The notes under the pieces are model-generated. The model was not told the DNA's origin, made no database searches, and saw nothing but the letters and a program-made list of their open reading frames with translations. Positions 5,394 to 63,733 of a DNA stretch of 64,000 bases are shown here, piece by piece. Source of the DNA: Selaginella moellendorffii (taxonomy: Eukaryota > Plantae > Lycopodiophyta). The stretch covers positions 2,645,839-2,709,838 of the forward strand of contig NW_003314267.1 of the NCBI RefSeq assembly GCF_000143415.4, read 5' to 3'. Made by a program: the position numbers and the translations under genes. How positions within the stretch are numbered: position 1 is the stretch's first letter; the number at the start of each line of letters is the position of its first letter.

Positions 5394-5478
5394 AGACAAC
5401 TCACATTTTCGAACAAAAACAGGCCGGTGTATCCCGAAAGAATGCGCTGTGAGTGTTCTCCATTCTTTGGTGCTCATG

Positions 5479-7596: not shown

Positions 7597-7695
7597 AGTT
7601 TTCCTCTGGTCAATTACTCGTGCTACACTGCCACGTTTCTAGTGGTGTCATTATACGTGATTAAGGTTTGAGTAGTTGATGAAGGCCTCGAAGTC

Positions 7696-9290
7696 ATGCA
7701 GAAAACCAAATGGTTACCCCAATGCTTGATCTTCTCAATCCCCTTTGGCGATGATCTATTTGGCAAATGGTACAGTCCGGCTCGACTTCTTCCCAGGCGA
7801 CAATGGTCGTTTCTACTTGGGCATCTCGTTCACCAGGTTAGCCGGCGACTTCATCCCCATCTGGATTGCAAATCGCGACACTCCGGTGAGTTCCAAGGCC
7901 TCGCTCCTTCTCACTCACAAAGGCGAGCTCCACGTCGCCGGAGTTCTGGACGTCGGGTGCCTGGAACACCTAGGAGATAAACGAAAACTATACCTTCGCC
8001 TTCAACACCAGCAATGATCCTCCTTAGATCACTTGGTTCGAGAAGAGCTTCCAGCACTCCATCCTTCGTCTCGGACATGATGGAAGGATCGACTCGATGT
8101 GCTCGTATACTTCTCTGATGCCATGTAGTTGTCCCACTGGGTCGAGACCAGCCAACGAGGACTGGGCTCAAGGGTGCACCACTTATTCCAAGATCTCCAG
8201 AATTGCTGTCGGAGTTGGAGCTGGAGCCGCGTTGCTACTGTTGCTTGGACTTATAATCGGCATCATGAAAATTCTCAAGACCAAGACAGTCCCAAGCAGT
8301 GGCAAGTGTAAGAGCGACGACTTTGCTGGTGGCGAGCTCGCTCATTTCACGCCCAAGCAGCTCCATGCAGCCACGGATGGTTTCAAGCAGCGGTCTTCAA
8401 AGGGTGTTACATCCAAGGAGAGGCTGTGGCTGTCGAGAGGCTGATCAAGTTCGAACCAGAGCTGAGCACCATTGGGACCCTTCAACACGTCAACCTCGTC
8501 CGGCTTCGAGGATATTGTGGCAAAGAAAGGCTCCTGGTGTACGAGTTCGTCGAGGGAGGATCGCAGGACAGGAGCCTCTTCAACCGAGATCTAAACGGTG
8601 CTGAAAACTCGGTCGTGCTCAGCTGGAGCCAAAGGTTCGGGATTGCTCTCGGGACTGCCAAAGGACTTCCATATCTTCACGAGGAGTGTCGAGACCGGAT
8701 CATCCACTACGCCATCAAGCCCGAGAACATCCTCCTGGACGCCAAGATGAAACCCAAAGTTGCCGACTTTGGCCTGGGCAACGAGAGTTTAGCCGAGTTG
8801 TGACGAGCATGAGAGGAACCCGCTTTAAACCTATGATATTGATCGACTGCGACATCGCCATTGCTCCTGTCTATCGGCTACCCTGCACCAGAGTGGCTGT
8901 CAAACATGCCCATAACCCCGAAAGCCGACGTCTACAGCTACGGGATGACGCTGCTGGAGATCATCAGTGGTCGCAGGAACATCGACTTCCGAAACGACCA
9001 GATCGTCTTCTATCCCCTGTGGGCTTCTCAGCAAGTTTGCAACGGTGAGTTCTCGAAGTTGCCAGGTGATCGTCTCGAAGAGTGGAATGAAAAAGAGCTA
9101 CGCTATTTGGTGCATCCAAGACAGCGAGAAGAATCGAAAACCGTGGTGGAAATGCTCGAGGGAAACACCAAGGCTTATTTTCCAGAGCCGTGTGTTCCAA
9201 GTTCTCTCGACTTGTGGCTTGATATTCAAGAAGAAACAACCATGCCAGTAGACAACGAAGATCAAACACAAAATCTTTCGAGCTCAAATT
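7696..9290 (+). pseudogene. Degraded SD-RLK pseudogene, head-to-head with 5479-7596
   Basis: Fragments FYLGISF..IPIWIANRD, QHVNLVRLRGYC, IIHYAIKPEN (catalytic Asp lost) and PEWLSNMPITPKADVYSYG lie in different frames, with deletions and an insertion in the activation segment. Confidence 0.9.
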
Positions 9291-9353
9291 TTAAATTTAA
9301 ATATTCCGTTTGCTTGTTTAAATATTCCTTTGGCTGGAGCCCTAGTTTGAGCT

Positions 9354-9812
9354 ATGGCGGTGGAGCTCGGCTCAGACGTGGAGCCCGAGTCTTCCACGTT
9401 CTGCATCAATGACGAAGATCACACCTTCGGCAACTCTATTCGCTACGTTCTCAACGGCGAGTAAGCGCTCTATTCTTCTTCTTCTTTGCTCGAATCTCTG
9501 GATTCTTTCGATTTCTCCAGCCCTCGCGTCACATTTTGTGGCTACAGCGTTCCTCATCCATCCGACAACCGTGTAAACGTTCGTGTGCAAACCACAGGCA
9601 AGTAACGGAGAAGATCGATCAACTCTCTCCTTTCTCTCAATTCTTTCTCGTGTTTGTAGACGATGGATCATATGTTTATTTTTTTTACAGGTGAATCTGC
9701 AAAGTCCGTCTTTAAGGATGCTCTGCGAGACCTCGTTCTCATTTGTGATCACGTATGCAGCGCGTTTGACGACTCCGTCGCGAGTTTCAAGCGTAGCCAC
9801 CAGCAGCAGTAA
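9354..9812 (+). CDS. RPAC2: RNA polymerase I/III subunit AC19 (RPAC2, RPB11 family), 3 exons
   Basis: Spliced MAVELGSDVEPESSTFCINDEDHTFGNSIRYVLNG, PRVTFCGYSVPHPSDNRVNVRVQTTG, ESAKSVFKDALRDL; EDHT.GN and GYSVPHP motifs; the second intron needs a GC donor. Confidence 0.9.
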
Positions 9813-19923: not shown

Positions 19924-19996
19924 GGTTTAGCGCCAAGGCATATACCCCGATTTAAAACTGACTAAGGCTTACCAGATCCTAGGGTTTTGAGTGGGG

Positions 19997-20638
19997 ATGG
20001 GCTACTCGACGCAGCCATGGCGCAGCAGCAAGATAGGGCTGCTGGAATTCGTGGACGTCTCAGGCAGGATGATGGAGAATTTTCTTCTTCCAGGGGATGA
20101 GAGCCAGAGTGACAGGGAGTACCTGGAGATCAATCTTGCCCACGCGGGTTTGGGCGGGCGGCAGGCGGCCGAGGCGCGGCAGCTGCTCGACGCGGTGGAT
20201 TTTGCCAGGAGATGGAGCATCGAAATGGGCGATCTGGTGGAGATCCAGCGCCGCGTGGTGGGGAGATCAAGCGAGGGATTGCCATGGCTTGTGAGTTGGC
20301 TTGTGAGGTGGGCTTTCCCAGATTTTAGGAGCAACGAGGCCCGTGACGAGCTGCGCGACGCAATCCTTCCCAAGCTCAACGCGCGCCTTGCCCAGTCGCA
20401 AGACCCTCTCGAGCGAGTCAAGGCGGCGGCATGGTTTTCTAAGTGCTTGACGAGCCTGCGGCCCTTTGTCGATGGAAACGCTCGCGTTGGCGAGGTGGTA
20501 GTGTCGATCATCCTCAAGGATTGGGCTCCTTTTCCTCTCAGGATACACGATCGTGGATGGCTGCGCGAGCAATCAATTCCAAGGGATGGTATTGGAGAAG
20601 AGGAGCTTGCAGCCTTGATCCTCCAGCGGGCCGCATAA
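19997..20638 (+). CDS. Fic/DOC-domain protein with degenerate active site (pseudo-Fic), intronless, ~213 aa
   Basis: KAAAWFSKCLTSLRPFVDGNARVGEVVVSIIL matches the Fic helix-loop-helix (HPFxDGNGRxxR) with H->R, G->A and R->E; shares PFP and LAAL motifs with the 31706 Fic. Confidence 0.75.
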   Translation: MGYSTQPWRSSKIGLLEFVDVSGRMMENFLLPGDESQSDREYLEINLAHAGLGGRQAAEARQLLDAVDFARRWSIEMGDLVEIQRRVVGRSSEGLPWLVSWLVRWAFPDFRSNEARDELRDAILPKLNARLAQSQDPLERVKAAAWFSKCLTSLRPFVDGNARVGEVVVSIILKDWAPFPLRIHDRGWLREQSIPRDGIGEEELAALILQRAA

Positions 20639-23275: not shown

Positions 23276-23337
23276 CTTTGACTTGACCAGATTAATGACG
23301 TGGACACCACGACCTTGGGTCAGCACACGACGATATA

Positions 23338-25485
23338 ATGGCCTCTCAAATCGTCGTCATGGTCACGGCAAAGATCATGGCGCTGCTCCAATTCCTCTTC
23401 CTCTCTCTCCTCCCGCTCGCGCTCGCATACGATCGAATGCCTCTGGGATCGTCCCTGCTCACCACTGAATCTCTCATTTCGGCAAATGGCAGAGTGAAGC
23501 TCGAGTTTTTCTCCCCAACCGGAGGCAACAGCAGTGATCTCTACTTAGGCATCTCCTTCAACACCACAACCAGAGAAATCATGGAATTCATCCCCATCTG
23601 GATTGCAAACCGCGACACTCCGGTGACTTCCAACGCCTCGCTCCTCCTCACTAGCAAAGGGGAGCTCCAAATCATCGATAGGGGAAGTATCATATGGTCT
23701 GGCGCTCCCAGCTCCAGCAACTCGGGAATCACCCAAGCGGTGCTCCTAGATTCGGGCAACTTCGTCCTCACTGACAACGCCTTCGATCCTAGAGACGATA
23801 ACGCGACGTATCCCTGGCAGAGCTTCGATCACCCGGCGGATGCCTGGGTCCCAAGGATGAAGATGTTCCTGGGAGCCAACCTCACGGCCTGGAAGTCGAG
23901 CGTCTCTCCGGCTAGTGGGCGATTCGTCATGACCATGAGAACCTCTAACGAGTTCGTCATCTCCACCACGAATGATACGTCGCGGGAGTACTGGACGTCC
24001 GGTGCTTGGAACGGCAAGATCTTCTCGCTGGTACCGCAGATGACCGACAACTATCTCTACACGTTCATCTTCAACGCCACCAATCCTCCATCCTTCACTT
24101 GGTTCGAGAAGAGCTTCCAGCACTCCATCTTTCGCCTCGGGCACGATGGAAGGATCGAGGTGAAGCAGCTGGATGGAAACGGAAACTGGTACACCCCCTG
24201 GGCCGTCCCGGCTAACATCTGCGACGTGACTTCTCTCTGCGGATCAAACTCGGTTTGCTCGAGCAGCTTGAATCCACCCTGTAGTTGTCCCACCGGATCG
24301 AGCCCGAGCAACGACACTAACTGGAGAACCGAGGACTGGGCCGAAGGCTGCACCGCTCTCTCGAGCCAAGCACGGAGAAGTTCTTCCAAGAACTCGGGAG
24401 TTGCCATCGGAGTCGGAGCTGGCATCGTGCTGTTGCTGCTGGCAGGACTAGCGGCGTTTGTGATCGCCAGGAGAAGACGCAAGGCCAAGAGAGTGAGCTC
24501 CAGCAGTGGCAGCAGTAAGAGCGATCAAAGGTCCATCTATAACTTTGTTGAAGGCGAGCTCGCCAATTTCACGTTCAAGCAGCTCCATGCAGCAACCGAT
24601 GGTTTCAAGAAGCGTCTCGGGAGTGGCGGCTTTGGAGAAGTTTTTAAAGGGAGCATCCAAGGCCAGGCCGTGGCTGTCAAAAGACTGATCAAGTTCGATG
24701 ACAAGCAGTTTCGAGCGGAGGTGAGCACCCTTGGCACCGTTCAACACATCGACCTCGTCCGGCTTCGAGGATTCTGTGCCGAGGGAAGGCTCCAGAGGCT
24801 TCTGGTGTACGAGTTCGTCGAGAGAGGATCGCTGGACAGGACCCTCTTCAACCGAGATGCTGAAAACTCTGTCGTGCTCAGCTGGAGCCAAAGGTTCGGG
24901 ATTGCTCTCGGGACGGCCAAGGGACTGGCATACCTTCACGAGGATTGTCGACACCGGATCATCCACTGCGATATCAAGCCAGAGAACATCCTCCTGGACG
25001 CCGAGATGAAACCCAAAATCGCCGACTTTGGCCTGGCCAAGCTTCTGGGACGAGAGTTTAGCCGAGTTGTGACGAGCATGAGAGGAACCCGCGGCTACCT
25101 TGCACCAGAGTGGCTGTCAAACATGCCCATCACCCCCAAAGCCGACGTCTACAGCTACGGTATGACGCTGCTCGAGATCATCAGCGGCCGCAGGAACATC
25201 GACTTCCGAAACGACCAGATCTTCTTCTATCCCCTCTGGGCTGCTGAGCAAGTTTGTAACGGTGAGTTCGCGAAGTTGCCAGATGATCGTCTCGACGAGT
25301 GGGATGAAGAAGAGCTACGCCGGGCTGCCAGAACTGCTATCTGGTGCGTGCAAGACGAGGAGATCAATCGGCCCAGCATGAAAACCGTGGTGCAAATGCT
25401 CGAAGGACGTGCGACTGACTTTCCAGACCCTGTGAAGCCGAGCTCGTTTGAGATCTGGCTTGAGTTTCAAGAACAAAGTGCCTGA
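23338..25485 (+). CDS. G-type lectin S-domain receptor-like kinase, third paralog, 715 aa
   Basis: Same architecture and motifs as 2895 and 5479; intact ORF; opposite strand. Confidence 0.95.
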   Translation: MASQIVVMVTAKIMALLQFLFLSLLPLALAYDRMPLGSSLLTTESLISANGRVKLEFFSPTGGNSSDLYLGISFNTTTREIMEFIPIWIANRDTPVTSNASLLLTSKGELQIIDRGSIIWSGAPSSSNSGITQAVLLDSGNFVLTDNAFDPRDDNATYPWQSFDHPADAWVPRMKMFLGANLTAWKSSVSPASGRFVMTMRTSNEFVISTTNDTSREYWTSGAWNGKIFSLVPQMTDNYLYTFIFNATNPPSFTWFEKSFQHSIFRLGHDGRIEVKQLDGNGNWYTPWAVPANICDVTSLCGSNSVCSSSLNPPCSCPTGSSPSNDTNWRTEDWAEGCTALSSQARRSSSKNSGVAIGVGAGIVLLLLAGLAAFVIARRRRKAKRVSSSSGSSKSDQRSIYNFVEGELANFTFKQLHAATDGFKKRLGSGGFGEVFKGSIQGQAVAVKRLIKFDDKQFRAEVSTLGTVQHIDLVRLRGFCAEGRLQRLLVYEFVERGSLDRTLFNRDAENSVVLSWSQRFGIALGTAKGLAYLHEDCRHRIIHCDIKPENILLDAEMKPKIADFGLAKLLGREFSRVVTSMRGTRGYLAPEWLSNMPITPKADVYSYGMTLLEIISGRRNIDFRNDQIFFYPLWAAEQVCNGEFAKLPDDRLDEWDEEELRRAARTAIWCVQDEEINRPSMKTVVQMLEGRATDFPDPVKPSSFEIWLEFQEQSA

Positions 25486-31705: not shown

Positions 31706-32797
31706 CTAGAAGGTGGCAAAACTTTGAGAGCCAAGAGCATCGAAAAATCTCTTCCATCCAACGTAGACTCCCTCGATAACCAGCGCAGCTAGATCCGCTG
31801 GAGGATAAATCCTGGCATTGGCAACATTTTCCTCCGCCACTACAATCCGAGAGGCACCAGCGCCATCGCTGCGAACCATCTCAAACTTTTGCTCCTCCTG
31901 AGCTCTCGCGAAACATTCATAGTAGTCCCTCTTGTCCACGAAAGGAGGTTCATCCGCATTGCCATCGCTTCTCTCCACGAGGAGAACATTGGGAAACGGC
32001 ATCACGCTGCGAAGGAGTGCTGCTAGAACGATCCTCCCAACCCGGCCATTCCCGTCCAGGAAAGGATGGACGTTCTCAAACTCGAAGAAGACCCTGGCAC
32101 CAAACTTGAGGATCGCCTCCAAGCTCTCGGCCGAGAACTCCGCCTCGTCGATGGCGATGAGCTCCTTGAGTTCTTCGTTGGAGCTCGCCACCAGCTCTTC
32201 CAGCGCTGCTTCCACTCGCGTCGGCCACAAAAAGACGTGAATTCCACCCGCTAGCGTCCTGGTAAACACCACTTCGTGCATCTCTCGCCTCAAGTGTGCT
32301 GCAAACTCGGGCTTTGTGCTCGCCATGAGCTCCTGGTGAGCTTCCAAGATCTTTGGAACACTGAGGAGCTCGACCACTGTGCCATTCTCTTGGTGATCCG
32401 GAAAGAAAATCCTCAAGGCTCGGTCGAGGCAGCGCACGGCTTCCAGCCTCCTATCGGATTGAATCACATCTCCCAGCTCAAGAGCTTTGCCCCGAAGAAT
32501 GGCTTCCCTCGTCTCCTCAAAGGTGTCAAATCCCTCTCCCTCGATCTTGTTTACCTGGAAGAGGTACTGCGACAGAGCCTCGGGGCCATAGCTCTCTCTC
32601 GCCCACCGCTTGTGCTCCTCCGGGAGCTGCCTGTATCGATCTCGGAATTCGTGGATCCTAGAGACGAGCTCGCTAGTGCTCACTGCGTCGCTGGATCGCC
32701 AGAATGGATTCGCCGAGACCTCGTAGTCCGCCTTTCCCGACGCCCGTGCGTCTACTGCGATCACAAGAGCGATCGCGAGGATGAATCGAAGGAGCAT
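31706..32797 (-). CDS. Fic-domain (AMPylase-type) protein with N-terminal signal peptide, intronless, 363 aa
   Basis: Canonical HPFLDGNGRVGR motif; VNKIEG resembles the (S/T)xxxE(G/N) inhibitory helix; hydrophobic N-terminus MLLRFILAIALVIAVDARA. Confidence 0.9.
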   Translation of the reverse strand: MLLRFILAIALVIAVDARASGKADYEVSANPFWRSSDAVSTSELVSRIHEFRDRYRQLPEEHKRWARESYGPEALSQYLFQVNKIEGEGFDTFEETREAILRGKALELGDVIQSDRRLEAVRCLDRALRIFFPDHQENGTVVELLSVPKILEAHQELMASTKPEFAAHLRREMHEVVFTRTLAGGIHVFLWPTRVEAALEELVASSNEELKELIAIDEAEFSAESLEAILKFGARVFFEFENVHPFLDGNGRVGRIVLAALLRSVMPFPNVLLVERSDGNADEPPFVDKRDYYECFARAQEEQKFEMVRSDGAGASRIVVAEENVANARIYPPADLAALVIEGVYVGWKRFFDALGSQSFATF

Positions 32798-33074
32798 CGC
32801 TCAACCCTATTCTCTCGCTGACAAACCCTAATACAAACTTTTTATATTCCCTAGTTTAAATAGGATAATATATATTTAGGGGCTCGCCATTCTTCCATAA
32901 GCCCTAAAACCAGAGCGCCAAATTCAAATTTAAACGTGGAGGGACCATCTTACAAGTTCTTTCTTTTTTTTTTTTTTGGCCTTTCTCTTTGGGGAGAACG
33001 AATGTACACAAACTTGGTCCCTTTCCTCACTAGAGCAGATAAACTAAGCCTTGGAAAATTAGTCATCCGCTCTC

Positions 33075-48010: not shown

Positions 48011-51000
48011 TGTTGCAACATGTACGGCACAATTTTCTATCCCGTTGTAGCGGGTCTGTGGCCCCTGACGTGGTTCATGGTAAATCTGAGGTGAGGTTAG
48101 ATTCCTAGATTGTCATCTTTGTTTCAACTAAGAGTCATTTCTGTCCATGGTCAATTTTAAAATTGATTGTGATTCTAAAATTGTATAAACTAGGCTAGCA
48201 TAGCATGACAAAATCATGGCCAAAAAGCTTGATGTTCACTAATATTTAGAGATTGTGAATCATGAGACATGAGTTAGCTTGGTTTTGGGAAGAGAAATGT
48301 GAGTGTGGAGTGACTATGATGCTGTGATGAGATGAATTATATGTAATTACTGTGTGTCGTACTGATTTTGACTAAGATGGGGATTTTGGCTAGAGTAAAA
48401 GATAAGTATTTAAATCAATTTGGTCACACAATGGGATAGCCCTGTTGACACAAACCACGGGAATATTCTAAGAATATTCTATGGCCTGTGGGATTTAAGG
48501 CCGTAATGCCTTTAAGGGTTGGGAGGTTGGCTTAGGGTTCGCTCTCTTGTTCGTTTCAGTGGTATTGGAGCAGCACGTTCTTTTGGGGATGGCGGGTGAG
48601 CAAGACATTGATCCTGATGAGGAGTATGGCGTTAGTGATGATAGCCATGACGATGCGAAAGAGACTCTTGATGATGTTGTTGTGCGGCAAGGATGCCAGA
48701 TTTCTAAGGTTTAGAGCGACATAAAGGAGGTTAAGGATTCCGTCAATCTCATTAAGGATTTCTTGCTTCGCATGATGAAACGTGTATGTACATTCCCCAA
48801 TGTCCCGTAGGGACTAATACAAAAACCGGGCATGCTGCCCGAATCTCATGCTACCTAGTGGGGTCTCCCTCATCTAAAGTGGGACTAGGCCTGCAGTAAA
48901 AGCGGCTGCGGATTTCTTGCTTCGCATGAACCCTCAAGGGTTGAATCAATTTCATGTCCGTGATTACCATTGGTACGTCAAGCATGCCAAGGATTATGGT
49001 ATCGTGGAATGGAAATCATCACCAGATGTTTGTGATAGTCAAGAGGTTGATTCTTGGTTGGAATTGTGGGAAAGTCGTTGGTCTTACAATCCTTGTGAGG
49101 ATAAGGTGAAAATAGATTTCTTTGTGATGAAGCTTACGGGCCATGCTTCTTCGTGGTGGAAGAACTACATCAAAGCTAATCTGAAGCTGACTTCTTGGAC
49201 TGATTTGACAAAGGTTTTCCGCGCTTCGTTTGTCAAGAAGTTTGAAGAAGTTGATCTTGTGAATTAGTTGTTAGAGATCCGGCAAGGGACTCTGTCTTTG
49301 GATGCGTATGCCCACAAGTTCCGTGATCTTTGCCTTAGTCTCACAGGCATCTATAATGAGCTGCTAAAGGTGCAATGTTTTATCAAAGGATTGAGCTCGG
49401 TGGATGTGCAGTAGAAGGTCAAGAAGGATTTTCCAGCAACATTGACTGATGCTATCACTAAGGCTAGATCTTTTCGCCCGAACCGTCAGTCAACTTGGTC
49501 AACTATGGTCAACGAGATGGTCTACGGAGTAGTCAACGTGATGACCAGCTCACCAATGCTTCATATTCGGGGAAGAAACAACCGTTGTTCTGTTATGGCT
49601 CGAAGCATGAAGATGGTAGTGAGGCTAAGAAACTTCGTTTGGACCAGCGAGAGAAGGACAAAGTGGAGGGCAATTGTTTTCGTTGCTATAGAGCTAGACA
49701 TCAAAGCAAGGATTGTTCTGAAGGGGTCAAAGAATAATAATGTGACTGTGGTGGAAATTATAGGCAATGATGTGAGTGATAGTGCTTTTGGGGCCGTATT
49801 GCTTCAAGTTAGGCATTGTCTCGCATTCATGAGCCACAAGTTTGATGCCACACAATGGAATTGACCTACTCGAGAATGCCAATATTATCTATATAGATCG
49901 GACTTCTATGTAGATTCAAATCATCAATCTCTCCAGATGTGGATCTTTGAGGCCGCCTTGCTCGTTGGCAAGAGTTCCTGCAGGAAATGTCTGTTAAGAT
50001 CCGGTACAAGCATGGAGGTGACAATAAGGTGGCTGATGCGTTATCTAGGATGGTAAATTCTATCTCATTCGTGAAGCTATCCAGAGATCTCTTGGATGAG
50101 CTTAAGGAGTTTGCTGACTTCGACTTCTTTATCACTGATATTCGCGCAAAGGTTTTGTTGAGGGACGCCTCTACGGATTTGAAGGGTGACAAGTTTGCGT
50201 CATTCGAAATACGAGATGGAATTCTGGTGAAGAAGGGACGTGTAGTGGTTCCTCGTGTTGACAAACTCATCAAACGGATTTTTGTTGAGTGTCATGATGT
50301 GCCAAGTGTTGGGCATCCGGGGGTATTGAGAACGTATATGTTGGTGAAGAGGCATTTCTTTTGGCCTGGGATGAAGTCAAATGTTGAGAAGTACGTACGT
50401 GGTTGTTTGACCTGCCAAGCGGTCAAAGTTGATCATCAGAAGCTTGCTAGCCTCTATCATCCTTTACGTGTACCCGAGAATAAGTGAGATAGCATCTCGA
50501 TGGACTTTATCACTGGTTTGCCCAAAACCTTTCGAGGAAATGATGCTATTTGGGTTGTTGTGGATCGTTTGACGAAGATGGCTCACTTCTTCCCTGTGAA
50601 GACAACGATAAAAACTTCTGAACTTGCTCAGTTGTTTGTAGACCGGTTTATTCAGTCTCTATGGTTTGCCAGGTGACATTGTGAGTGATCGGGATCCTAA
50701 GTTTATGTCCAAGTTTTGGCAAATGGTCTTTGAGAAACTAAAAACTAAACTGAGCATGAGTAGTGGTGAGCATCCACAATCTGATGGGCAAACAGAGTGC
50801 ATGAATCAGCTATTAGAAGATATGCTACGGTCTTTTGTGGGAAACTTGACTCAACAGGGAGTATGGGAGAAATACTTGCCTTTACTTCAGTTTGCTTACA
50901 ATAGTGCTCATCAATCAGCTATTGGCATGTCCCCTTTTATGGCGATGTATGGCTATGAGCCTAGGTCTCATGTGAGTTTGAATTTGGCTTTGGTTCGGGT

Positions 51001-51287
51001 TCCTCATGCTTGTGATTTCCTGGAGGATATGCAAGACAAGCTTGAGTTGGCAAAATTGAACATGAGGCAAGCTCAAGAACAAGACAAAAGATTGGCTAAT
51101 GAGCATCATCGTCATCAAGAGTACAAAGTTGGTGACAAGGTTTTCCTTAAGCTGTCGGATGCACAACGGTCTCTAAAAGGAGGTGGCAGTGCCAAGTTGT
51201 CTCCACGGTATTGTGGACCTTGGACAATTTTACAGTGTGTAGGGGATCTTGCATACACTTCGGACTTGCCAATTAGTTCGAAGATTC
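48011..51287 (+). mobile_element. Degenerate Ty3/gypsy element A: 5' LTR (start uncertain, ends ..TTTCA 48558), PBS, gag, RNaseH remnant and integrase; protease and RT deleted; 3' end lost
   Basis: PBS TGGTATTGGAGC at 48560; gag KLTGHASSWW and knuckle CFRCYRARHQSKDC; SDSAFGAVLLQ; integrase CHDVPSVGHPG..CLTC, IVSDRDPKF, HPQSDGQTE, KLSPRYCGPW; many stops and frameshifts. Confidence 0.88.
48776..48909 (-). mobile_element. 5'-truncated non-LTR (LINE-like) insertion in the gag of element A
   Basis: Flanked by direct repeat GGATTTCTTGCTTCGCATGA (48756-48775 and 48910-48929); reverse complement of 52936-53069. Confidence 0.85.
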
Positions 51288-52084
51288 TGTAAGCCACAAA
51301 TTTTTCCTTTCCAATTTGCCAGCTTATCTCGTCTATCTGACCAACTCTACCTTGGCTTGTGCTAAGTTCCCTCGCCAAGGTTCTCGCCTATGGTACCAGC
51401 TCCTACTTGGTCCTACTTGGTTTCAGCTACTCACTGCACGAGCAACGGAGTGTTAGCCATCCATCTACGGATTCCCAAATCTCTCCCAATACCCCTCCCC
51501 GGGTTAGACTGGACTTAAGGTTCGGCTACACTCCCCACAGGCACAAGCAGCCAAGCACACCAAGCCTCCAGATTCCTAACACCCCTTGGTACCACAAGAC
51601 TTGATCATGGGACCCTCTAAATCCCAAGCCTTGGGTGCAGCACTTGCTTCGGGACGTCGGGGCGAAACACCATGGCCTAACGGCCCGGTATGAGTACCTC
51701 CACCCCCCCCCCCCCATCCCGAAGAAAGGTCCAAGCCCCTAGGAAGGGCGAGGACCAATGAGCCGCATGGGACTCAAGTGGGGCACCACTCCACATGAGT
51801 CGGGAGCACCGCAGTCGGTTTCCCTTTCGGGAGTGGGAGCTGCTCTTGAGCACTTCCTTGGATGGCCCCTCCGGCACGAGCGAAGTCCATGCTCACTCCC
51901 ACCCAAGGTTCCTCGGTCCCAGTCTCAACCTCATAGTCGGTTTGGAACGCCAACTGGAGAGTCCCTTCAAACTGGTTCCTGGACCTCACTATCCCTACTA
52001 TACTTTTGGAACCCCCTGCAGCCCCCCCCCCCTTGGGAGACACACGCTTTGGGCTTTCACCCCTTGAGCTGTATTAGTATGTGG

Positions 52085-52340
52085 ACTTAGTCTTAGAATC
52101 AATCTTGGACTCGATCTCGGACCCGACTTCGGACTCGGTCTCGGACTCGATCTCAGACTCGATCTCGGACCCCATCTCGGACTCGACTTCGGACTCGACC
52201 TCGGACTCGGTCTCGGACCCGATTTGGGTCTCGGACTCCGTCTCGAACTCGGTCTCGATCTCGGTCTCTGATTCGGCCTCGGCTCGATCCCGGACTCTAT
52301 CTCGAACTCGGTCTCAGAGTCGGTCTTGGACTAGATCTTC
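52085..52340. repeat. Degenerate 12-bp (2x6) tandem array, GACTCGATCTCG-like, within the element B repeat
   Basis: Runs of GGACTCGATCTC / GGACTCGGTCTC / GGACCCGATTTC; paralogous array at ~58672-58950. Confidence 0.85.
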
Positions 52341-52683
52341 AACTCGGTCCCATCCGATGAACTCTTTGTCATTTCGGTCAAGCTTTCGGGGATCCTTTAG
52401 CCTACGACATCTCGGGGAGTCGGTTCCTTACAACTCCACCACCCATAGAAGAAGTTCAATGCCCACATCAAACGTCTCTTTTTATCCTACGACTTGTTGA
52501 CCATGTCTCCGGGGGCATCCCCCCACTTAGCGGTGTGCCTAAGTTAGCCTCCCCGGCCAAGAGCCCATGACAACGAAATATAGGTGTCCCTATACCCCTC
52601 ACCTCACCACGCCCTAGTATGGGGTCGGGACTTGAACCCAGCCCTGCTTTACTAGGGGGTTGAGACTCAAACCCAACCTCCGT

Positions 52684-53069
52684 GACACAGGTCAGAGTAT
52701 CACAGGTGCTGGCGGAGTGGTGGAGACTTACATTGGCGGCAGTACGGCTTCACCATACTATCCTCCGGGATAGGGGGAAGCTTGAGAGGCTCGAGGAGTG
52801 GCAGAAAGCATGGATGCCATGTTTTGGTAGAGGAGATCACAAGGAGGTTCGTTGGAGATGGCACCCCCCGGAGTCGATCTTGCGGTCAGCACGAAGGGGG
52901 GACGTGGATCTGGATGCGATACGACGGAGACGACCGCAGCCGCTTTTACTGCAGGCCTAGTCCCACTTTAGATGAGGGAGACCCCACTAGGTAGCATGAG
53001 ATTCGGGCAGCATGCCCGGTTTTTGTATTAGTCCCTACGGGACATTGGGGAATGTACATACACGTTTCA
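52684..53069 (+). mobile_element. 5'-truncated non-LTR (LINE-like) insertion carrying an ORF 3' end and 3' UTR
   Basis: TSD TCAAACCCAACCTCCGT (52667-52683 and 53070-53086); absent from the paralogous site at 59285; ORF tail ..WQKAWMPCFG..LLLQA*. Confidence 0.85.
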
Positions 53070-56000
53070 TCAAACCCAACCTCCGTAGAATACGTCTACG
53101 GATTCGACATCCCCGCGGGGAGTCGGGTGTAGTGCCCTACGCCTGGTCGACCTATCCAACCCATGCTAATTAGCTTACCTTCGGCGCGCCTTCGGGTCCT
53201 AACATATGCCACGTGCTCAACTTTGCAAATTGATATTTTTAATTGAACTTTGCATAAGTACATAGAGTTCTGCCTTGCAGAAATTCCTCCACTAGATCTC
53301 GTGCGTTCGCTAGGTTCTCCTCCAGTTCCCATGTTGCTTCACAGTGTGGAAATCCTTTCCACTTCACATGGAACTCTCTCACCTCGCGTCCTTGTTGCTT
53401 GCTCTTGCGCACATTGAGGATGGCCTCGACTTCGTATTCCTCTTCCCCTTGGATAACCTCAGGTAAAGGTCTTACTTGGTCCTTGCGAAGTGGATCCTCA
53501 AAGTACAGCTTAAGTAAGTTCATGTGGAACACTGGGTGCATTTCCCCATCTCTCGAGGAAGTCGGAGTCGGTAAGCCACTTTACCGATTCGTGCCTCAAT
53601 CTCGTAAGGCCCCACGAACCTGCTTAAGGAACTCAAGATCAATTCATTTACAGGAATACATGCATTTTTACCTTTGGGTCAACTTCCGGCTGATCCCACT
53701 TGGTAGCCTGAGATTTTTGGTGTTCAGCCACACCTTCTCCCCAGCTTGGAACTCTACATCCCGGCACTTTTGGTTTGCGTACTTGGTTTGTCTTTGTTAA
53801 GCCCGTTCCAAGGAATCCCTCACTAGATTCCAAATGTTGAGTCTTTCCGCCGTGAATGCCTCCACTGCGGGTAGCTCTCCATGATACTCGGCCACGTTGA
53901 GTTCCACAGGACCTTCAATAGCTCGCCCATTGATGACTTCCCATGGACTCACCCCGATACTCGAATGTGGTGACTTGTTATAACACATTTCTGCAAGTCC
54001 CAAATGACTTACCCAATCGGTCTGGTCTCCCAAGACATAGCATCGCAAATTATCCTCCAGCTGCCTATTCACCCTTTCCGTTTGTCCGTCTGTCAAGAAG
54101 TGTTAGTGCCACCAAACTTGACTTAATACCCCTTACCTGTCTGTGGGTGATAGGCTGTGCTGAATTTCAACTTGGTGCGATACTGTTCTAGGAGAGTCCT
54201 CCAGAACCTACTAGTGAAGATCTTATCCCGATCTGAGATGATCTCTTCCGGCCTTCCCTGCACTCGAACCACTTGTTCGAAGAACAGTTTCGCCACACCT
54301 TCCGCATCCACTTCCGTTGTGGTGGGTATGAAATGTGCCATTTTTGAAAATCGGTCCACCACCACGAATATTGCATCAAACCTCTCGCTTAAGGGGAGAA
54401 GACATTTCCACGGGCGATTTGGAATTGGGATGCTTTGCAACAAGCCCCCACTAGCCTTAGTCACGGCTTTTACCTGCTGACATGTTGGACATGTCTTTAC
54501 ATAGTCTTGGACATCCTTAGCTATATCTGGCCAATGGTACTTCCTCTTCAGTAAGCCCATCGTCTTGGGCACTCCGCCATGTCCCGCAAGAGGTCCCTCA
54601 TGACACTCTTCTAAGGCTACCTTCCTTAGTTCCCCTTCTGGAACATACACCCTCGTTTGCTTGTAATAGATGAGTCCGTTGCGTTCCACATAGCCTGTTT
54701 TCTCTTCTGTTGGCAGCTCACCTCTCTGGTGAGCTTCCCGTGCCTCTAGATTCCTCAGCAACACTTCTTGTGCTAGACCATCGTTCTCATATGCTGTCCG
54801 CACATCGTCCCAGAAGGTTGCTGTTGCGCTGGATATTGCTAACCTCAAGCTCGCTTTTTGACTTAGCGCATCCGCCACGATGTTGCTCTTCCCAAGATTG
54901 TATAGAATTTCACAATCAAACTCGGCCAAGGCATTGGCCCACCAACCTTGTTTCCCTCTCAGGTCGGGCTGTGACAAAAATGTTTCATTGCCACATTGTC
55001 CGTATAAACCTTGAAGTGTCTCCCAAGGTAGTGTCGCCACTCCTTGAACGCCTTGACCACCGCAAACAATTCCTTCTCGTGGGCAGGCCACTTCTGTTGA
55101 GCCTTGTCCAACTTCTTCGAGAAGAACGCTACTGCATGGTTGTCTTGCTTCAAAACTGCGCCCAACGCAAAGTCTGAAGCATTCGTTTTTACCTCAAAGT
55201 CCTTACCAAAGTTTGGTAATGCCAATACGGGAGCCTTCCTCAACTTCCCTTTGAGGTGGACAAATGCCGCCTCGCATTCCGCTGTCCATACCATCTTCCC
55301 TTTTCCTGTTTGGTCCATTAAGGGCAGGGCTACTCTCGAATAGTGTCTGATAAACTTTCGATAATAGTTGCATAGCCCTAGGAATGCCCTCAAATCGTGT
55401 ACATTCGATGGTCGCTCCCATTCCTGGATCGCTTGGACCTTCTCCGGGTCCACCTTGAGCCCGTCCTGGCCCACCACATGCCCGAGAAACTTTACCTCTT
55501 GTTGAGCAAAGTCACATTTGCTCTCTTTAGTATACAGTTTGTGTTCCCTTAGTTTCTCAAACACCTTCGCCAAGTGTTCGGCATGCTCCTCTAGCGTCTC
55601 GCTATAGATCAGGATGTCGTCGATATAGATAACCACGAAGTGATCCAGATAGGGTACAAAGATGTGGTTCATCAGTGCCGAAAACGTTGCCGGCGCATTG
55701 CATAACCCGAAGGGCATCACGAGAAACTCGAAGCTCCCATACGTCGTTCGACAGGTTGTCTTCTCGACATCTTCCTCAGCTACCCTGATCTGGTAGTATC
55801 CTGACCTTAGGTCAATCCTCGAGAAGTATTTTGCCTTTCCCAACCTATCGAACAGGTCCTCAATCCTGGGCAAAGGGTACTTGTTCTTCTTTGTATACTT
55901 GTTGAGCAACCGGTAGTCTATGCACATGCGCATAGATCCATCTTTATTTTTCACAAATAACACCGGCACCCCATATGGCGACTTGCTCAACCTAACATAC

Positions 56001-59000
56001 CCTTTGTCCACCAACTCCTCTAGTTGGCGCTTGAGCTCCTCGAGTTGTTTCTCGTTCAAACGATAGGGGGGACGAACCACCGCCTCAGCACCCTCGACCA
56101 GCTCAATCTTATGTTCTATCAGTCGTGCGGGGGGCAACCCCGCCGGTAACTCCTCAGGCATGGTATCCTGGAATTGGTCCAACACCCGTTGGATCACTAA
56201 AGGTACTTCTTCCGTTCCTGTCTTTTTTTTACTCTTCACCGAGAGTAAGCACAAAAATGCTACCTTAGTTCCTTTAGTGAGTTGTCCTCTCGTGGACACC
56301 AGGTTTAAGCAAGATTCTTTGGCCTTGCTTTGCTCTACCTTTAGATCCTGGGCCTCCACCCTGGACCTTCTTCCTTGGGCATTCGCCAGTACCACAAGGT
56401 TTCTACCTTGTCCATGTAGGGCTACCACGAACCGTTGAACTAGTCCATTCCGAAGATCACGTCAAATCCCGCCATGTCTATCACGGTGAAATCCATGTCC
56501 ACTTTCCATGTCCCTACTTCGACTCTCGCTTGTCGAAGTACCTCATCGGTGCTTTGGCTACCTTGAACAAACTCTATAGTCCTTGGTTCGCCTAGCCGCT
56601 ACACCGTTAGTCCGGCTTGCTGGACTATGTCTGCAGCCACAAAATTATCCAAAGCACCCGTGTCAATAAGGATCTTAACAAAGCTACCTCCGAGCTTCCC
56701 CTGGAGGGCTAGTAGATGTCGTGAACGACTCTCTACTAAAGTTGCTCGTGTAATGAGTAACTTTGAGTTAGGGACTGAATCACATACCTCAATTTGGACT
56801 TCACCCGACTTGATGGCCATATTAGCTCTGGCCTTCTTCGGGTAGGGACATTCCCTCAAAAAGTGTCCCGCTGCACCGCAGTTGTAGCATACGTTGTTTC
56901 CCACGCTACTATACAACTTGACCTTCTTATCCGTGGGTTTGTCTCTTTTCGCTTGACTCCCCCACGTACTCGCTCGCTGGCCACCAGATTTGCCTTTCTG
57001 GAACCCCGAGGACTCATTCTTAGAGAAACTCTTCTTGAATTTCCCTCTGCTAAATGTTCCCCTTGGTTTGGCCCCTTTGCTAAACGTGGATCCCAACCCC
57101 GTCGTGTTCCCCTTTCGCAAGTTATCATTGAAATGCACCTTGATGGCTGCATCCAATGCTTCCTTATAGTTGGTCGGGTTCCACCGCATCACCTCACCAC
57201 GAGCCCAGGTTTGCAAACCTGATATGAAGGCATGGAACGCGTCCATATCCCCCATGTTCATGACAAATATCCTCTTTGCCATAAACCCATTCACATACTC
57301 CTGAATGGTTCCGGTCTGCTTCAACCTACTCAGCTCGTCTCTTAGATGCAAAGTAGCATTCGGAGGAACGTAAGTCGCGCGGATCCTCACCTTCATCATT
57401 TCCCAAGTGGCCACCGGTCCTTCATTGGCCTCTGTCGTTCTCCACCAAGACTTGGCATTATCTGCCAAGTATGGTTTTGCACATGGGACCTTCTCCAAGC
57501 TTGGTAACCGCAACGCTCGGAAGTAGTCCTCCATATCATAAAACCAATCCTCCACCACTTTATAGTCATTCACTCCCTTGAAGACCGGTGGGGGCTTTGG
57601 TTTGTACTTGGGAACTGCCTGAGGGATTGATTCCACTTCAGTCTGTTCGACTTTGTTTGGTTCTGCCTCAGACTCTACCGAAGGGTCCGCACCCTCTGCG
57701 CTGCCAGCATCCGTAGTCTTTTGCTTTTTCTTCCGCTTCTCGTCACGCTTTAACTTGCGTACGACAGTCTCTAGCAGGGCATTAGTTTGTGCCAATTGTC
57801 CTTCTAGAACGTCCAATCGAGCCTTGGACGACCGAAGACTCTTGTTTGGAAGTTGCCTCACTGGAGTCTTCCTCATGCAAGGATTCTGTAAGCCACAAAT
57901 TTTTCCTTTCCAATTTGCCAGCCTACCTTGTCTATCCGTCCAACACTGCCTTGGCTTTTGCTAAGTTCCCTCGCCAAGGTTCTCGCCTATGGTACCAGCT
58001 CCTACTTGGTTTCAGCTACTCACTGCACGAGCAACGGAGTGTTAGCCATCCTTCCACGGATTCCCAAATCACTCCCAATCCCCCTCCCCGGGTTAGACTG
58101 GACTTAAGGTTCGGCTACACTCCCCGCAAGCACAAGCAGCCAAGCACACCAAGCTTCCAGGTTCCTAACATCCCTTGGTACCACAAGACTTGATCATGGG
58201 ACCCTCTAAATCCCAAGTCTTGAGTGCAACACTTGCTTCGGGATGCCGGGGCGAAACACCGTGGCCTAGCGGTCCGGTATGGGTACCTCTCGCCCCCCAC
58301 TTCCATCCCGAAGGAAGGCCCAAGCCCCTAGGAAGGGCGAGGACCAATGAGCCGCATGGTACTCAAGTGGGGCACCACTCCACATGAGTCGGGAGCACCG
58401 CAGTCGGTTTCCCTTTCGGGAGTGGGAGCTGCTCTTGAGCACTTCCTTGGATGGCCCCTCCGGCACCAGCCAAGTCCATGCTCACTCCCACCCAAGGCCC
58501 CTCGGTCCCAGTCTCAACCTCAAGTCGGTTTGGAAGCCCAACTGGAGAGTCCCTTCAAAACTGGTTCCTGGACCTCACTATCCCTACTATACTTTTGGAA
58601 CCCCCTGCAGCCCCCCCCCCCTGGGAGACGCATGCTTTGGGCTTTCACCCCTTGACCCGTATTAGTATTTGGACTTAGTCTCTGGCTCGATCTCGGACCC
58701 GATTTCGGATCCGACTTCGGATTCGGGTTCGGACTCGATCACGGACTTGATCTCGGACCCGATCTCGGACCTGACCTCGGACTCGACCTCGGACTCGGTC
58801 TCGGACCCGATTTCGGATCTCGGACTCCATCTCGAACTCGGTCTCGAACTCGGACTCGAACTCGGTCCCCGAGTCGGTCTCGGACTCGATTCCAGACTCT
58901 ATCTCTAACTCGGTCCTAGAGTCGATCTTGGACTCAATCCTCGACTTGGTCCCATCCGATGAACTCTTTGTCATTTCGGTCAAGCTTTTAGGGATCCTTT

Positions 59001-59285
59001 AGCCTACGACATCTCGGGTAGTCGGTTCCTTACAACTCCACCACCCATAGAAGAAGTTCGATGCCCACATCGAACGTCTCGTTTTATCCTACGACTTGTT
59101 GTCCATGTCTCCGGGGGCATCCCCCCACTTAGCGGTGTGCCTAAGTTAGCCTCCCCGGCCAAGAGCCCATGACAACGGAATATAGGTGTCCCTATACTCC
59201 TCACCTCACCACGCCCTAGTATAGGGTCGGGACTTGAACCCAGCCTTGCTTTACTAGGGGGTTGGGACTCGAACCCAACCTCCGT

Positions 59286-62200
59286 AGAATACGTCTACGG
59301 ATTCGACATCCCCGCGGGGAGTCGGGCGTAGTGCCCTACGCCTGGTCGACCTATCCAACCCATGCTAATTAGCTTACCTTTGGCGCACCTTCGGGTCCTA
59401 ACATATGCCACGTGCTCAACTTTGCAAATTGATATTTTTAATTGAACTTTGCATAAGTACATAGAGTTCTGCCTTGCAGAAATTCCTCCACTAGATCTCG
59501 CGCGTTCGCTAGGTTCTCCTCCAGTTCCCATGTTGCTTCGCAGTGTGGAAATCCTTTCCACTTCACATGGAACTCTCTCACCTCGCGTCCTTGTTGCTTG
59601 CTCTTGCGCACATTGAGGATGGCCTCGACTTCGTATTCCTCTTCCCCTTGGATAACCTCAGGTAAAGGTCTTACTTGGTCCTTGCGAAGTGGATCCTCAA
59701 AGTACAGCTTAAGTAAGTTCATGTGGAACACTGGGTGCATTTCCCCATCTCTCGAGGAAGTCGGAGTCGGTAAGCCACTTTACCGATTCGTGCCTCAATC
59801 TCGTAAGGCCCCGCGAACCTGCTTAAGGAACTCAAGATCAATTCATTTACAGGAATACATGCATTTTTACCTTTGGGTCAACTTCCGGCTGATCCCACTT
59901 GGTAGTCTGAGGTTCTTGGTGTTCAGCCACACCTTCTCCCCAGCTTGGAACTCTACATCCCGACGCTTCTGGTTCGCGTATTTGGTTTGCCTTTGTTGAG
60001 CCCGTTCCAAGGAATCCCTCACTAGATTCCAAATGTTGAGTCTTTCCGCCGTGAATGCCTCCACTGCGGGCAACTCTCCATGATACTCGGCCACGCCGAG
60101 TTCCACAGGACCTTCAATAGTGTAAGGCTCCTGAGTTTGGACTTCCCGGGAGGTCACCCAGCCCAGTACTATTCAAACCCAAGGACGCTTAACCCCAAGT
60201 ATCCCAAGACCCTTAACCGTTTGGAAAAGGGGGTGCACTCTTGTTCATGGGCCCTTTCCCTCTATATTTGAACCCCATGGACCGTCTCTCACGTCGTTCC
60301 CTTTGGTTGCTTACAATCCACCACGCTTCCCTGCAAGTTCACGCCCTCGTGAACGGAAGCTGAGAGCCGCAGCTCTCCCGAGAGCCCCGCTCTCTTGACA
60401 CCCTACCCCTCGGGTCGAGCCCAGCGGGAGCAAACTGGACCAGCCATCTTGACACCCTACCCCTCGGGTCGAGCCCAGCGGGAGCAAACTGGACCAGCCA
60501 GATGTCAATCAACATGTGGTGTGATTCCCTTAGCCAACCAACAGAGTCGGACCCGAGACCCTCTGATACCAAATGTAAGGCTCCTGAGTTTGGACTTCCC
60601 GGGAGGTCACCCAGCCCAGTACTATTCAAACCCAAGGACGCTTAACCCCAAGTATCCCAAGACCCTTAACCGTTTGGAAAAGGGGGTGCACTCTTGTTCA
60701 TGGGCCCTTTCCCTCTATATTTGAACCCCATGGACCGTCTCTCAAGTCGTTCCCTTTGGTTGCTTACAAATAGCTCGCCCATTGATGACTTCCCATGGAC
60801 TCACCCCGATACTCGAATGTGGTGAGTTGTTATAACACATTTCCGCAAGTCCCAAATGACTTACCCAATCGGTCTGGTCTCTCGAGACATAGCATCGCAA
60901 ATAATCCTCCAGCTGCCTATTCACCCTTTCCGTTTGTCCGTCTGTCAAGAAGTGTTAGTGCCAACAACTTGACTCAATACCCCATACCTGTCTGTGGGTG
61001 ATAGGCTGTGCTGAATTTCAACTTGGTGTGATACTGTTCCAGAAGAGTCCTCCAGAACCTACTGGTGAAGATCTTATCTCGATCTGAGATGATCTCTTCC
61101 GGTCTTCCCCGCACTCGAACCACTTGTTCGAAGAACAGCTTTGCCACACCTTCCGCATCCACCTCTGTTGTGGTGGGTATGAAGTGTGCCATTTTCGAAA
61201 ATCGGTACACCACCACAAATATCGCATCAAACCCCTCACTTGGGGGGGAGTCCCGTGATGAAGTCCATCGTAAGACATTTCCACGGGCGATCTGGAATTG
61301 GGATGCTTTGCAACAAGCCCCCACTAGCCTTGGTCACGGCTTTTACCTGCTGACATGTTGGACATGTCTTTACATAGTCTTGGACGTCCTTAGCCATATC
61401 TGGCCAATGGTACTTCCTTTTGAGTAAGCCCATCGTCTTGGGCACTCCACCGTGTCCCGCAAGAGGTCCGTCATGACACTCTTCTAAGGCCACCTTCCTT
61501 AGTTCCCCTTCTGGAACATACACCCTCGTTTGCTTGTAATAAATGAGTCCGTTGCGTTCTGCATAGCCCGTTTTCTCTTCCGTTGGCAGCTCACCTCTCT
61601 GGTGAGCTTCCCGTGCCTTTAGATTCCTCAGCAACACTTCCTGTGCTAGACCATCGTTCTCATATGTTGTCCGCACATCGTCCCAGAAGGTTGCTGTTGC
61701 GCTGGATATTGCCAACTTCAAGCTTGCTTTTCGACTTAGCGCATCCGCCACGATGTTGCTCTTCCCAGGCTTGTACAGAATTTCGCAATCAAACTCGGCC
61801 AAGGCATTGGCCCACCGACCTTGTTTCCCTCTTAGGTCGGGCTGTGACAAGAAGTGTTTCGTTGCCACATTGTCCGTGTAAACCTTGAAGTGTCTCCCAA
61901 GGTAGTGTCGCCACTCCTTGAGTGCCTTGACCACCGCAAACAATTCCTTCTCGTGGGCAGGCCACTTCCGTTGAGCCTTGTCCAGCTTCTTCAAGAAGAA
62001 CGCTACCGGATGGTTGTCTTGCTTCAGAACTGCGCCCAACGCAAAGTCTGAAGCATCCGTTTCTACCTCAAAGTCCTTACCAAAGTCTGGTAATGCCAAT
62101 ATGGGAGCCTTCCTCAACTTCCCTTTGAGGTGGACGAATGCCGCCTCGCATTCTGCTGTCCATACCATCTTCCCTTTTCCTGTTTGGTCCGTTAAGGGCA

Positions 62201-63290
62201 AAGCTACTCTCGAATAGTGTCTGATAAACTTTCGATAGTAGTTGCATAGCCCCAGGAACGCCCTCAACTCATGTACATTCGATGGTCGCTCCCATTCCTG
62301 GATCGCTTGGACCTTCTCCGGGTCCACCTTGAGCCCGTCCTGGCCCACCACATGCTCGAGAAACTTTACCTCTTGTTGAGCAAAGTCACATTTGCTCTCT
62401 TTAGCATACAGTTTGTGTTCCCTTAGTTTCTCAAACACCTTCGCCAAGTGTTCGGCATGCTCCTCTAGCGTCTCGCTATAGATCAGGATGTCGTCAATAT
62501 AGACGACCACGAAGTGATCCAGATAGGGTACAAAGATGTGGTTCATCAACGCCGAAAACGTTGCCGGTGCATTGCACAGCCCAAAGGGCATCACTAGAAA
62601 CTCGAAGCTCCCATACCTCGTTCGACAGGTTGTCTTCTCGACATCTTCCTCAGCTACCCTGATCTGGTAGTATCCTGACCTTAGGTCAATCCTCGAGAAG
62701 TATTTTGCCTTTCCCAACCTATCGAACAGGTCCTCAATCCTTGGCAAAGGGTACTTGTTCTTCTTGGTATACTTGTTGAGCAACCGGTAATCTATGCACA
62801 TGCGCATAGATCCATCTTTCTTTTTCACAAATAATACCGGCGCCCCATACGGCGACTTGCTCAACCTAACATACCCTTTGTCCACCAACACCTCTAGTTG
62901 GCACTTGAGCTCCTTGAGTTCCTTTTTGTTCAAACGATAGGGTGGACGAACCACCGCCTCAGTGCCCTCAACCAGCTCAATCTTATGTTCTATCGGTCGT
63001 GCAGGGGGCAACCCCGCCGGTAGCTCCTCCGGCATGGTATCCTGGAATTGGTCCAACACTCACTGGATCACTAAAGGCACTTCTTCCGTTCTCGCCTTTT
63101 TGTCACTCTTCACCGAGAGTAAGCACAAAAAAGCTGCCTTAGTTCCTTTAGTGAGTTGTCCTCTCGTGGACACCAGGTTTAAGCAGGATTCTTTGGCCTT
63201 GCTTTGCCCTACCTTTAGATCCTGGGCTTCCACCCTAGATCTTCTTCCTTGGGCATTCGCCAGTACCACAAGGTTTCTACCTTGTCCATG
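59286..63290 (-). mobile_element. Ty3/gypsy chromovirus B, copy 2 (RT-RH-IN-chromodomain), in tandem with copy 1 and 5'-truncated at ~63290
   Basis: 607-aa RT/RH/IN ORF 61236-63059 (YIDD, ETDASD, HHCC); 59286-60120 nearly identical to 53087-53921. Confidence 0.93.
60121..60768 (-). mobile_element. Cassandra-type TRIM: 195-bp TG..CA LTRs (60121-60315 and 60574-60768) carrying 5S-rRNA-like promoter boxes
   Basis: TSD AATAG (60116-60120 and 60769-60773); PBS TGGTATCAGAG on the minus strand; PPT-like tract; LTR reverse complement GTTAAGCGTCCTTGGG..TAGTACTGGGCTGGGTGACCTCCCGGGAAGTCC resembles 5S A and C boxes. Confidence 0.92.
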
Positions 63291-63733
63291 TAAGCTCTAT
63301 TTCGTTAAAGTGGGAATTGTCATTATCCCACTTGTAAAATAAGGTTTCCAAACCTTTATATAGTATATAAATATAACAAAATTCAACTGCATTGAGGCAC
63401 ATGCCATTTTATTTTAAACAAGGAAATGTCTACTCAATCACTTCTCCTCCCCCTGCCACTGCTTCACCTCTCTCTTCTCCTTGTCATCGTCGTCCAATTT
63501 CTTTCCATCCTTTTAATATTGGCTCAGTTGCTCCGAGTCTAGGTGGAGCCCAAGTCCCCATTCAATCTTTACTTTCCCATTATTAATAAAACAACTTCGT
63601 AGACTTCCAATAACATGTTGTAACACTTCTAGTATAATGCAAATCCTCTCAAAGAATTGTCTTTTAATATTAATACAATGGCATGGAACCCCATGCCATA
63701 ATAAGTTACATTTTTAAATAAATACATGCCATC

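Follow-up and report, generated by a model that had tools for sequence, protein, structure and literature searches.

Intron loss is a classic proof of retrotransposition, as reverse transcription of a spliced RNA drops its introns. How, then, can a Ty3/gypsy retrotransposon keep two spliceosomal-type introns within its integrase? The question is raised by a 64,000-nucleotide stretch of Selaginella moellendorffii DNA (hereafter the window, to which all coordinates refer), in which a first-pass annotation had read two short GT-AG segments of a chromovirus as introns and had proposed that their splicing gates transposition. Here we establish that these introns exist, that they are removed exactly in what is likely RNA, that they are present in DNA copies throughout the family, and that they are absent from its relatives.

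Two short introns divide the integrase reading frame

In the first of two copies of the element, intron 1 (54090-54136, minus strand; 47 nt, phase 1) extends from a GTAAGG donor through CACTAAC to a TTGACAG acceptor, and intron 2 (53620-53671, minus strand; 52 nt, phase 2) from a GTAAAA donor to a TAAGCAG acceptor. The corresponding segments of copy 2 lie at 60942-60987 (minus strand; 46 nt, GTATGG donor) and 59819-59870 (minus strand; 52 nt, identical to copy 1), and all four were located where the first-pass annotation had placed them. Intron 1 divides the Asp codon within HPQT-D-GQTERVN, while intron 2 divides an Arg codon ahead of F-V-GPY, which conforms to the F-x-GPY motif. None of the four lengths (47, 52, 46 and 52 nt) is divisible by 3, and every read-through meets a stop at most five codons into the segment, in agreement with the claim that the unspliced reading shifts frame and terminates. 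The complementary claim, that exact excision restores the integrase motif, is borne out by alignment to the Ty3 polyprotein (PDB 7q5b): the exon 1 piece (E 9e-29) ends at Gag-Pol residue 1267 and the exon 2 piece, a weak match (E 0.041), begins at residue 1269, leaving exactly one codon between them, the one that is split. The piece downstream of intron 2 enters the Pfam SH3 model, which describes Tf2-type integrases, at position 24 of 64, showing that intron 2 interrupts the SH3 module.

Both segments have the GT-AG ends and host-like size of U2-type introns. The host comparison rests on five intron candidates of 48-63 nt, hand-picked in the window from sequence alone, and is in keeping with the size match noted earlier; the CTAAC branch-point-like motif that had been pointed out in the first segment is indeed there, and is present in intron 1 only. 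GC content is 43% in intron 1 and 33% in intron 2, versus 50% in exon 2. Direct repeats of 5 nt (GACAG) and 4 nt (AGGT) span the ends of introns 1 and 2, respectively, and are partly forced by the splice consensus; such terminal repeats are known from recent intron gains. A search of the window sequence found no pairing or repeat longer than 11 nt between the introns and the remaining element.

Exact removal of both introns in RNA-like contigs

Eight sequencing runs, of 24 listed, were compared with the element; two others that were guessed to be RNA (X17 and X19) were left out. Four of the eight (X15, X16, X18 and X20) are likewise only guessed to be RNA, although the skips themselves support that status. 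Intron 2 is skipped in three of these four RNA-like runs (X15, X18 and X20), which come from three studies and differ in their variant patterns, and two of them, X15 and X18, also lack intron 1, with base-exact ends (54089 to 54137). Record 8 of X15, 2500 nt in length, lacks both introns, with aligned segments 54418-54137, 54089-53670 and 53617-53420 that are contiguous in record coordinates, and skips are also found in records 9 and 11 of X18 and record 12 of X20. The intron 2 skip, which reads 53617/53670, equals 53620-53671 moved by 2 nt through the ambiguity of the AG/GT junction. Exact skips in independent contigs put the segments beyond chance. The spliced forms that the introns predict were therefore found, both segments being skipped at the predicted ends among three RNA-like runs.

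Not every contig is fully spliced. The X20 contig lacks intron 2 but still contains intron 1, as the 46-nt variant of copy 2; it meets foreign sequence at 54170, 34 nt upstream of intron 1, from which it follows that at least one spliced transcript arose from a broken or read-through copy. A 614-nt contig of X16, at 33 differences, reads through intron 1 without a gap, and contigs of this run seem to enter both ends of intron 2; the X16 contigs may be unspliced RNA or DNA. Intron 1 as kept in X16 and X20 may also reflect ordinary host intron retention, which is described as frequent in S. moellendorffii, along with a mean intron length of 285 bp, in the available text of PMC5310277. The window copy stands apart from all three RNA-like contigs, and from much of the DNA, at its exon 2 stop and exon 3 frameshift. 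The raw RNA runs X22, X23 and X24 yielded 6, 2 and 0 reads of the family, respectively, with no joint and too few to test splicing, and the family looks nearly silent in them.

Architecture of the element and its tandem array

The coding part of exon 1 in copy 1 (54137-57877, minus strand) comprises gag, a CCHC knuckle, a protease motif, RT, RNase H, and the integrase zinc finger and core as far as HPQT. Pfam matches (PF03732, PF00098, PF00078, PF17919, PF17921 and PF00665) identify gag, the CCHC knuckle, RT, RNase H and integrase, protease is recognized from its DTG motif alone, and the resulting order, gag-PR-RT-RH-IN, is that of Ty3/gypsy elements. Exon 2 (53672-54089, minus strand; 418 nt) encodes the end of the integrase core, the linker and the start of the SH3 module; the Glu of GQTE that it contributes is the third catalytic residue of DDE integrases. 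The coding part of exon 3 (53239-53619, minus strand) supplies the remaining SH3 (GPY/F) module (PF24626, E 8e-9) and a chromodomain (PF00385, E 9e-16, 53242-53541). Intron 1 precedes the catalytic Glu and intron 2 precedes the larger part of the SH3 module as well as the chromodomain, whose position at the integrase C terminus is that of a chromovirus and which is reached only through both splices. Both window copies are degenerate. Exon 1 of copy 1 is disrupted by stops, frameshifts and a short deletion, exon 2 of copy 1 has one stop, and a frameshift in exon 3 is common to both copies.

On the minus strand, the array begins with copy 2 (59438-63292), a 5′-truncated pol of the same family as copy 1, and continues through repeated sequence consisting of 3′ UTR, LTR and leader (57882-59385, minus strand) into copy 1, followed by a third LTR and leader unit (51283-52683, minus strand) that is cut at the gag start and abuts a different retroelement, element A. 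The tandem array shows 1.4-kb direct repeats and a purine tract; no target-site duplication is visible in it. The LTR likely occupies approximately 59119-58006, as judged from the purine tract just ahead of it, and contains a poly-G tract at 58621; reading the whole 1.5-kb repeat as LTR was rejected, since no purine tract lies ahead of it and it exceeds the published length (see below). No long inverted repeat marking the LTR ends was found. Nor was a clean tRNA-Met primer site found in the window copies; in comparison with the primer site of a Cassandra element in the window, the best match is 9/11, at 57997. A candidate leader intron of 138 nt (57886-58023, minus strand; GTGAGT...TTACAG), predicted from its sequence, spans this primer-site-like match, and a short upstream ORF terminates at its donor. 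Further features of the likely LTR are hexamer-like tandem repeats of variable length (58660-58940 and 52080-52340) and, near its 3′ end, two 8-nt palindromes (TGGTACCA) 186 nt apart.

How much copy 2 adds to the evidence depends on the intron considered. The copies differ at 124 of 2264 positions (5.5%) upstream of intron 1, at 0 of 52 in intron 2 and at 3 of 381 in exon 3. Because the tract of intron 2 and exon 3 is near-identical and the exon 3 frameshift is common to both, we rejected copy 2 as separate evidence for intron 2. The earlier statement that both segments recur in copy 2 is thus correct as to their presence, but for intron 2 the recurrence has little weight as proof.

The array has also received other sequences. 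Exon 2 of copy 2 contains a small LTR element of Cassandra type (60121-60769, minus strand) with two 196-bp LTRs that are 99.5% alike and have a 5S rRNA match in each, a tRNA-Met-type primer site and a 5-bp target duplication (CTATT); it also contains a short tandem duplication in its interior. In copy 1, the 3′ UTR carries a 390-bp insert (52684-53072) between 15-nt direct repeats, of which 139 bp recur inverted and 100% identical in the gag of element A (48773-48911), between direct repeats of ∼19 nt; by its structure, the insert resembles filler DNA copied from a template during break repair. Element A itself (48560-51292, plus strand) is a degenerate Ty3/gypsy element with gag, little or no RT, and integrase, and it meets the third LTR-leader unit at a shared 5-nt sequence.

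The introns are retained in DNA copies across the family

In the DNA run X1, which derives from a different sample than the RNA-like runs, 10,638 family contigs were aligned over 1001 bases. Summed depth in bins wholly within the introns was 0.98 of the median (29 bins) for intron 1 and 0.86 for intron 2. The segments are therefore not confined to the tandem pair, a possibility that the first-pass annotation had itself raised as fatal to its reading; they are family-wide, at a depth like that of their flanks. Another check that it proposed, for intronless copies, gave no such DNA form: none of the best 15 of 24 listed joints removes an intron, and the joints of the RNA-like runs are expected in the remaining nine. 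A further 300 loose-end rows beyond these joints also limit this result. These 15 are all from X1, one contig each, at depths of 129-415, and nine of them lie at 129-138, which we take as about single-copy. Rare deletions are thus detectable at that depth, and any intronless form would have to lie below it. Summed depth is itself no copy number, but even at a 31-fold overcount it would imply ∼200 copies or more, in agreement with the copy number published for SM1-Galahad (see below).

The variation among these copies is unevenly placed. Besides the window copy's own breaks, two indels are listed in the 1001 bases, and both fall within the 99 bases of intron: 1 nt at 53665 (18 contigs) and 1 nt at 54114 (2 contigs and X20). 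This confinement fits selection on the exon frames, with intron length left free. Family copies differ by ∼5%, and the DNA differences are C>T or G>A at 174 of 233 places. The GTATGG donor variant of intron 1 (54133) makes up ∼28% of family depth in X1; this donor may splice differently from GTAAGG, X20 having kept that variant unspliced.

Relatives have a continuous integrase

Relatives were sampled as 83 loci in metagenome and viral contigs, whose best segments are 35-48% identical to the element. At site 1, the pieces flanking the intron position are one codon apart in 73 of 83 loci, 8 others being not measurable and 2 having short deletions; at site 2, they are one codon apart in 22 of 83, with 61 not measurable. 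No insert was found at either site among the measurable loci. Proteins gave a similar picture, although protein sets are biased to continuous genes and DNA loci are not: 77 members of a first set (n = 120) span site 1 by motif, 76 of which continue with D/N-G/S, and in a second set of 146 new proteins 127 span it and 123 continue in this way, the other 4 being substitutions. Element A is continuous at both motifs. Since both the relatives and element A are continuous, the comparison indicates that the introns were likely gained in this lineage. Protein collections hold no close family protein (best match 43-52%), none of 86 candidates in a weak search for longer proteins contained exon 2, and the exact DNA pattern had no match in metagenome contigs.

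The element is likely SM1-Galahad

A kinase gene neighbouring the element encodes a product with 97% identity over 99% to an S. moellendorffii protein, versus 45% for the next species. The window contains a cluster of single-exon G-type lectin receptor kinases (2895-9412 and 23299-25485) consisting of a tandem pair, a pseudogene and an inverted paralogue, as well as two intronless ORFs (19991-20638 and 31706-32800, both minus strand) with the motifs RPFVDGNARV and HPFLDGNGRV, which we take to be Fic-like.

SM1-Galahad is described in PMC3350952, as far as its text is available, as a Galadriel-clade chromovirus of S. moellendorffii with hundreds of copies at 95% similarity and LTRs of >1 kb with poly-G, a primer site and a purine tract; no intact copy and no target-site duplication are reported in that text. 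Its ORFs of 3885, 316 and 309 bp, the first ending in the integrase core and the last with the chromodomain, are read there as three separate ORFs, and the strings 'intron' and 'splic' are absent from the main text. The same source describes a sister family, SM2-Galahad, with one continuous ORF, an intact copy and hundreds of copies. Measured from ATG to stop, the window ORFs come to about 3860-3890 (start uncertain), 318 and 308 bp. The two descriptions therefore agree in the host, in a gag-pol ORF that ends in the integrase core and is followed by two short ORFs, with sizes within 1%, in a group I chromodomain in the last ORF and a chromo-box substitution (F-H-V-K-W-K-G in the window), in an LTR of >1 kb with poly-G, and in the many copies ∼95% alike. 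A point of difference is the 13-bp tRNA-Met primer site of the published element, for which the best match located in the window copies is 9/11. By description, the window element is likely SM1-Galahad, and it would then belong to the Galadriel clade, following PMC3350952.

A model for splicing and copying, and its alternatives

We consider it quite probable that unspliced RNA of this family, likely SM1-Galahad, is the template for new copies and that spliced RNA is the mRNA for full integrase. According to this model, unspliced RNA would direct synthesis of Gag-PR-RT-RNase H together with an integrase that terminates within intron 1, five codons past the donor, and would thus lack the catalytic Glu and be inactive. 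Removal of intron 1 alone would complete the catalytic core but supply neither the chromodomain nor most of the SH3 module, and removal of both introns would yield the whole integrase. How much integrase is made in proportion to Gag and RT, themselves encoded in a single frame, would then depend on the rate of splicing. In an RNA of the X20 type, with intron 1 but without intron 2, translation would end a long way 5′ of a splice junction, and such RNA could be subject to nonsense-mediated decay, an established pathway.

Spread by reverse transcription would imply that the templates of the family were unspliced. Intronless DNA forms are absent above about single-copy depth, whereas intronless insertions that led to no further copies should still show up; this suggests that spliced RNA is kept out before integration, rather than merely lost later. 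Exclusion might operate through capture of unspliced RNA by Gag, or through splicing of the leader, coupled to that of the introns, with loss of the primer site. A further, tentative extension, which we think possible but doubtful, is a two-step control by the spliceosome in which intron 1 gates catalysis and intron 2 gates chromatin targeting, with the coupled leader splice removing the primer site and blocking intron loss; were it true, partial splicing could alter insertion sites. The first-pass proposal of splicing-gated transposition is thus supported, indirectly, by the spliced RNA-like contigs and the family-wide introns, but it has a precedent in Ogre, and the notion of a regulated 'switch' goes beyond the evidence.

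The same observations must be weighed against other histories. The introns could be real and the family non-autonomous for integrase, with SM2-Galahad mobilizing its unspliced RNA and the product of host splicing no longer of consequence. A potential helper is at hand, since SM2-Galahad is described as having a single ORF and hundreds of copies, an intact one among them (PMC3350952, available text); copies of the element family are only ∼5% apart, so open exons could be leftovers, and expression in the three raw RNA runs is very low. We nevertheless regard this as unlikely: two separate gains each restore the frame to the codon, the listed indels sit in introns and not in exons, and the non-copying of spliced RNA is left unexplained.

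We judge it quite improbable that DNA-level processes spread the family once a single master copy had acquired the introns, be it through duplication (tandem or segmental), gene conversion or cut-and-paste of the Ginger kind; spliced RNA would in that case not have to be kept away from reverse transcription. Such a history would suit the three-unit tandem array, the near-identical tract around intron 2, the fact that the available text on SM1-Galahad reports no target-site duplication (PMC3350952), and the existence of gypsy-derived DNA transposons such as Ginger1 (PMC6839031, in part); it fits poorly with gag, RT and RNase H still being present, or with the published hundreds of 95%-similar copies with LTRs, primer site and purine tract (PMC3350952), and the C>T and G>A changes at 174 of 233 places are those expected of many copies decaying separately. 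There is, finally, a very slight chance that the segments are plain insertions and that the skipping contigs represent rare intronless DNA copies of other accessions, or assembly artefacts. RNA status is guessed, the DNA run comes from another sample, and the joints are known for the best 15 of 24; against this, the GT-AG ends are exact across three studies, X20 lacks one segment yet has the other, and no such joint appears in the DNA run among those best 15 of 24.

Relation to known systems

Ginger transposases contain introns, and a DNA transposon of Ginger type was considered for the window element and rejected on the presence of gag, RT and RNase H. Ginger and GingerRoot resemble it in their gypsy-like integrase but are described, in the part of PMC6839031 available, as having no gag, RT, LTRs or RNA stage, whereas gag, RT and LTRs are all found here. 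Splicing-gated pol is already known from Ogre, where some of the transcripts lose an intron situated between Gag-PR and RT (PMC6317226). The likeness is considerable, as in both cases the intron lies in the polyprotein gene, is kept in the genome, and is spliced in a subset of transcripts to give the full polyprotein (PMC6317226, PMC12786077 and PMC2533021, each as available in part). By the same partial sources, Ogre has one intron of ∼274 bp that gates RT-RH-IN and belongs to the Tat lineage of legumes, which is not chromoviral; the chromovirus of the window has two introns of 46-52 nt within integrase, which would gate only its catalysis and targeting domains. Membership in Ogre was rejected on the position of the introns in integrase and the presence of a chromodomain: the element works like Ogre but is not one. 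In EVADE and other Ty1/copia elements, alternative splicing separates genomic RNA from a subgenomic mRNA, and there, according to the available text of PMC5580714, the spliced RNA is an mRNA for Gag alone and all enzymes are encoded by the unspliced RNA, the reverse of the arrangement proposed here.

Among plant LTR elements, a 2025 review, in its available portion, credits functional introns to Ogre and EVADE only (PMC12786077). In the literature outside subscription journals and Repbase entries, no Ty3/gypsy integrase with introns came to light, and the available portions of PMC3783388, PMC5890265, PMC6875170, PMC12477816 and PMC11963269 contain no relevant statement. It is thus the position in a chromovirus integrase, with two minimal introns, that was not found reported in these sources.

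Significance

The introns explain the odd annotation of SM1-Galahad, in the published description available, as an element of three ORFs. They also set the family an unusual task, as near-identical RNAs, 99 nt apart in ∼6 kb, must be sorted between translation and copying, and the selection of genome RNA thereby becomes testable in a natural system. With SM2-Galahad reported as an intronless sister family, the element offers two intron gains that can be dated. In species whose introns are very short, seemingly 'broken' elements may likewise be spliced rather than dead.
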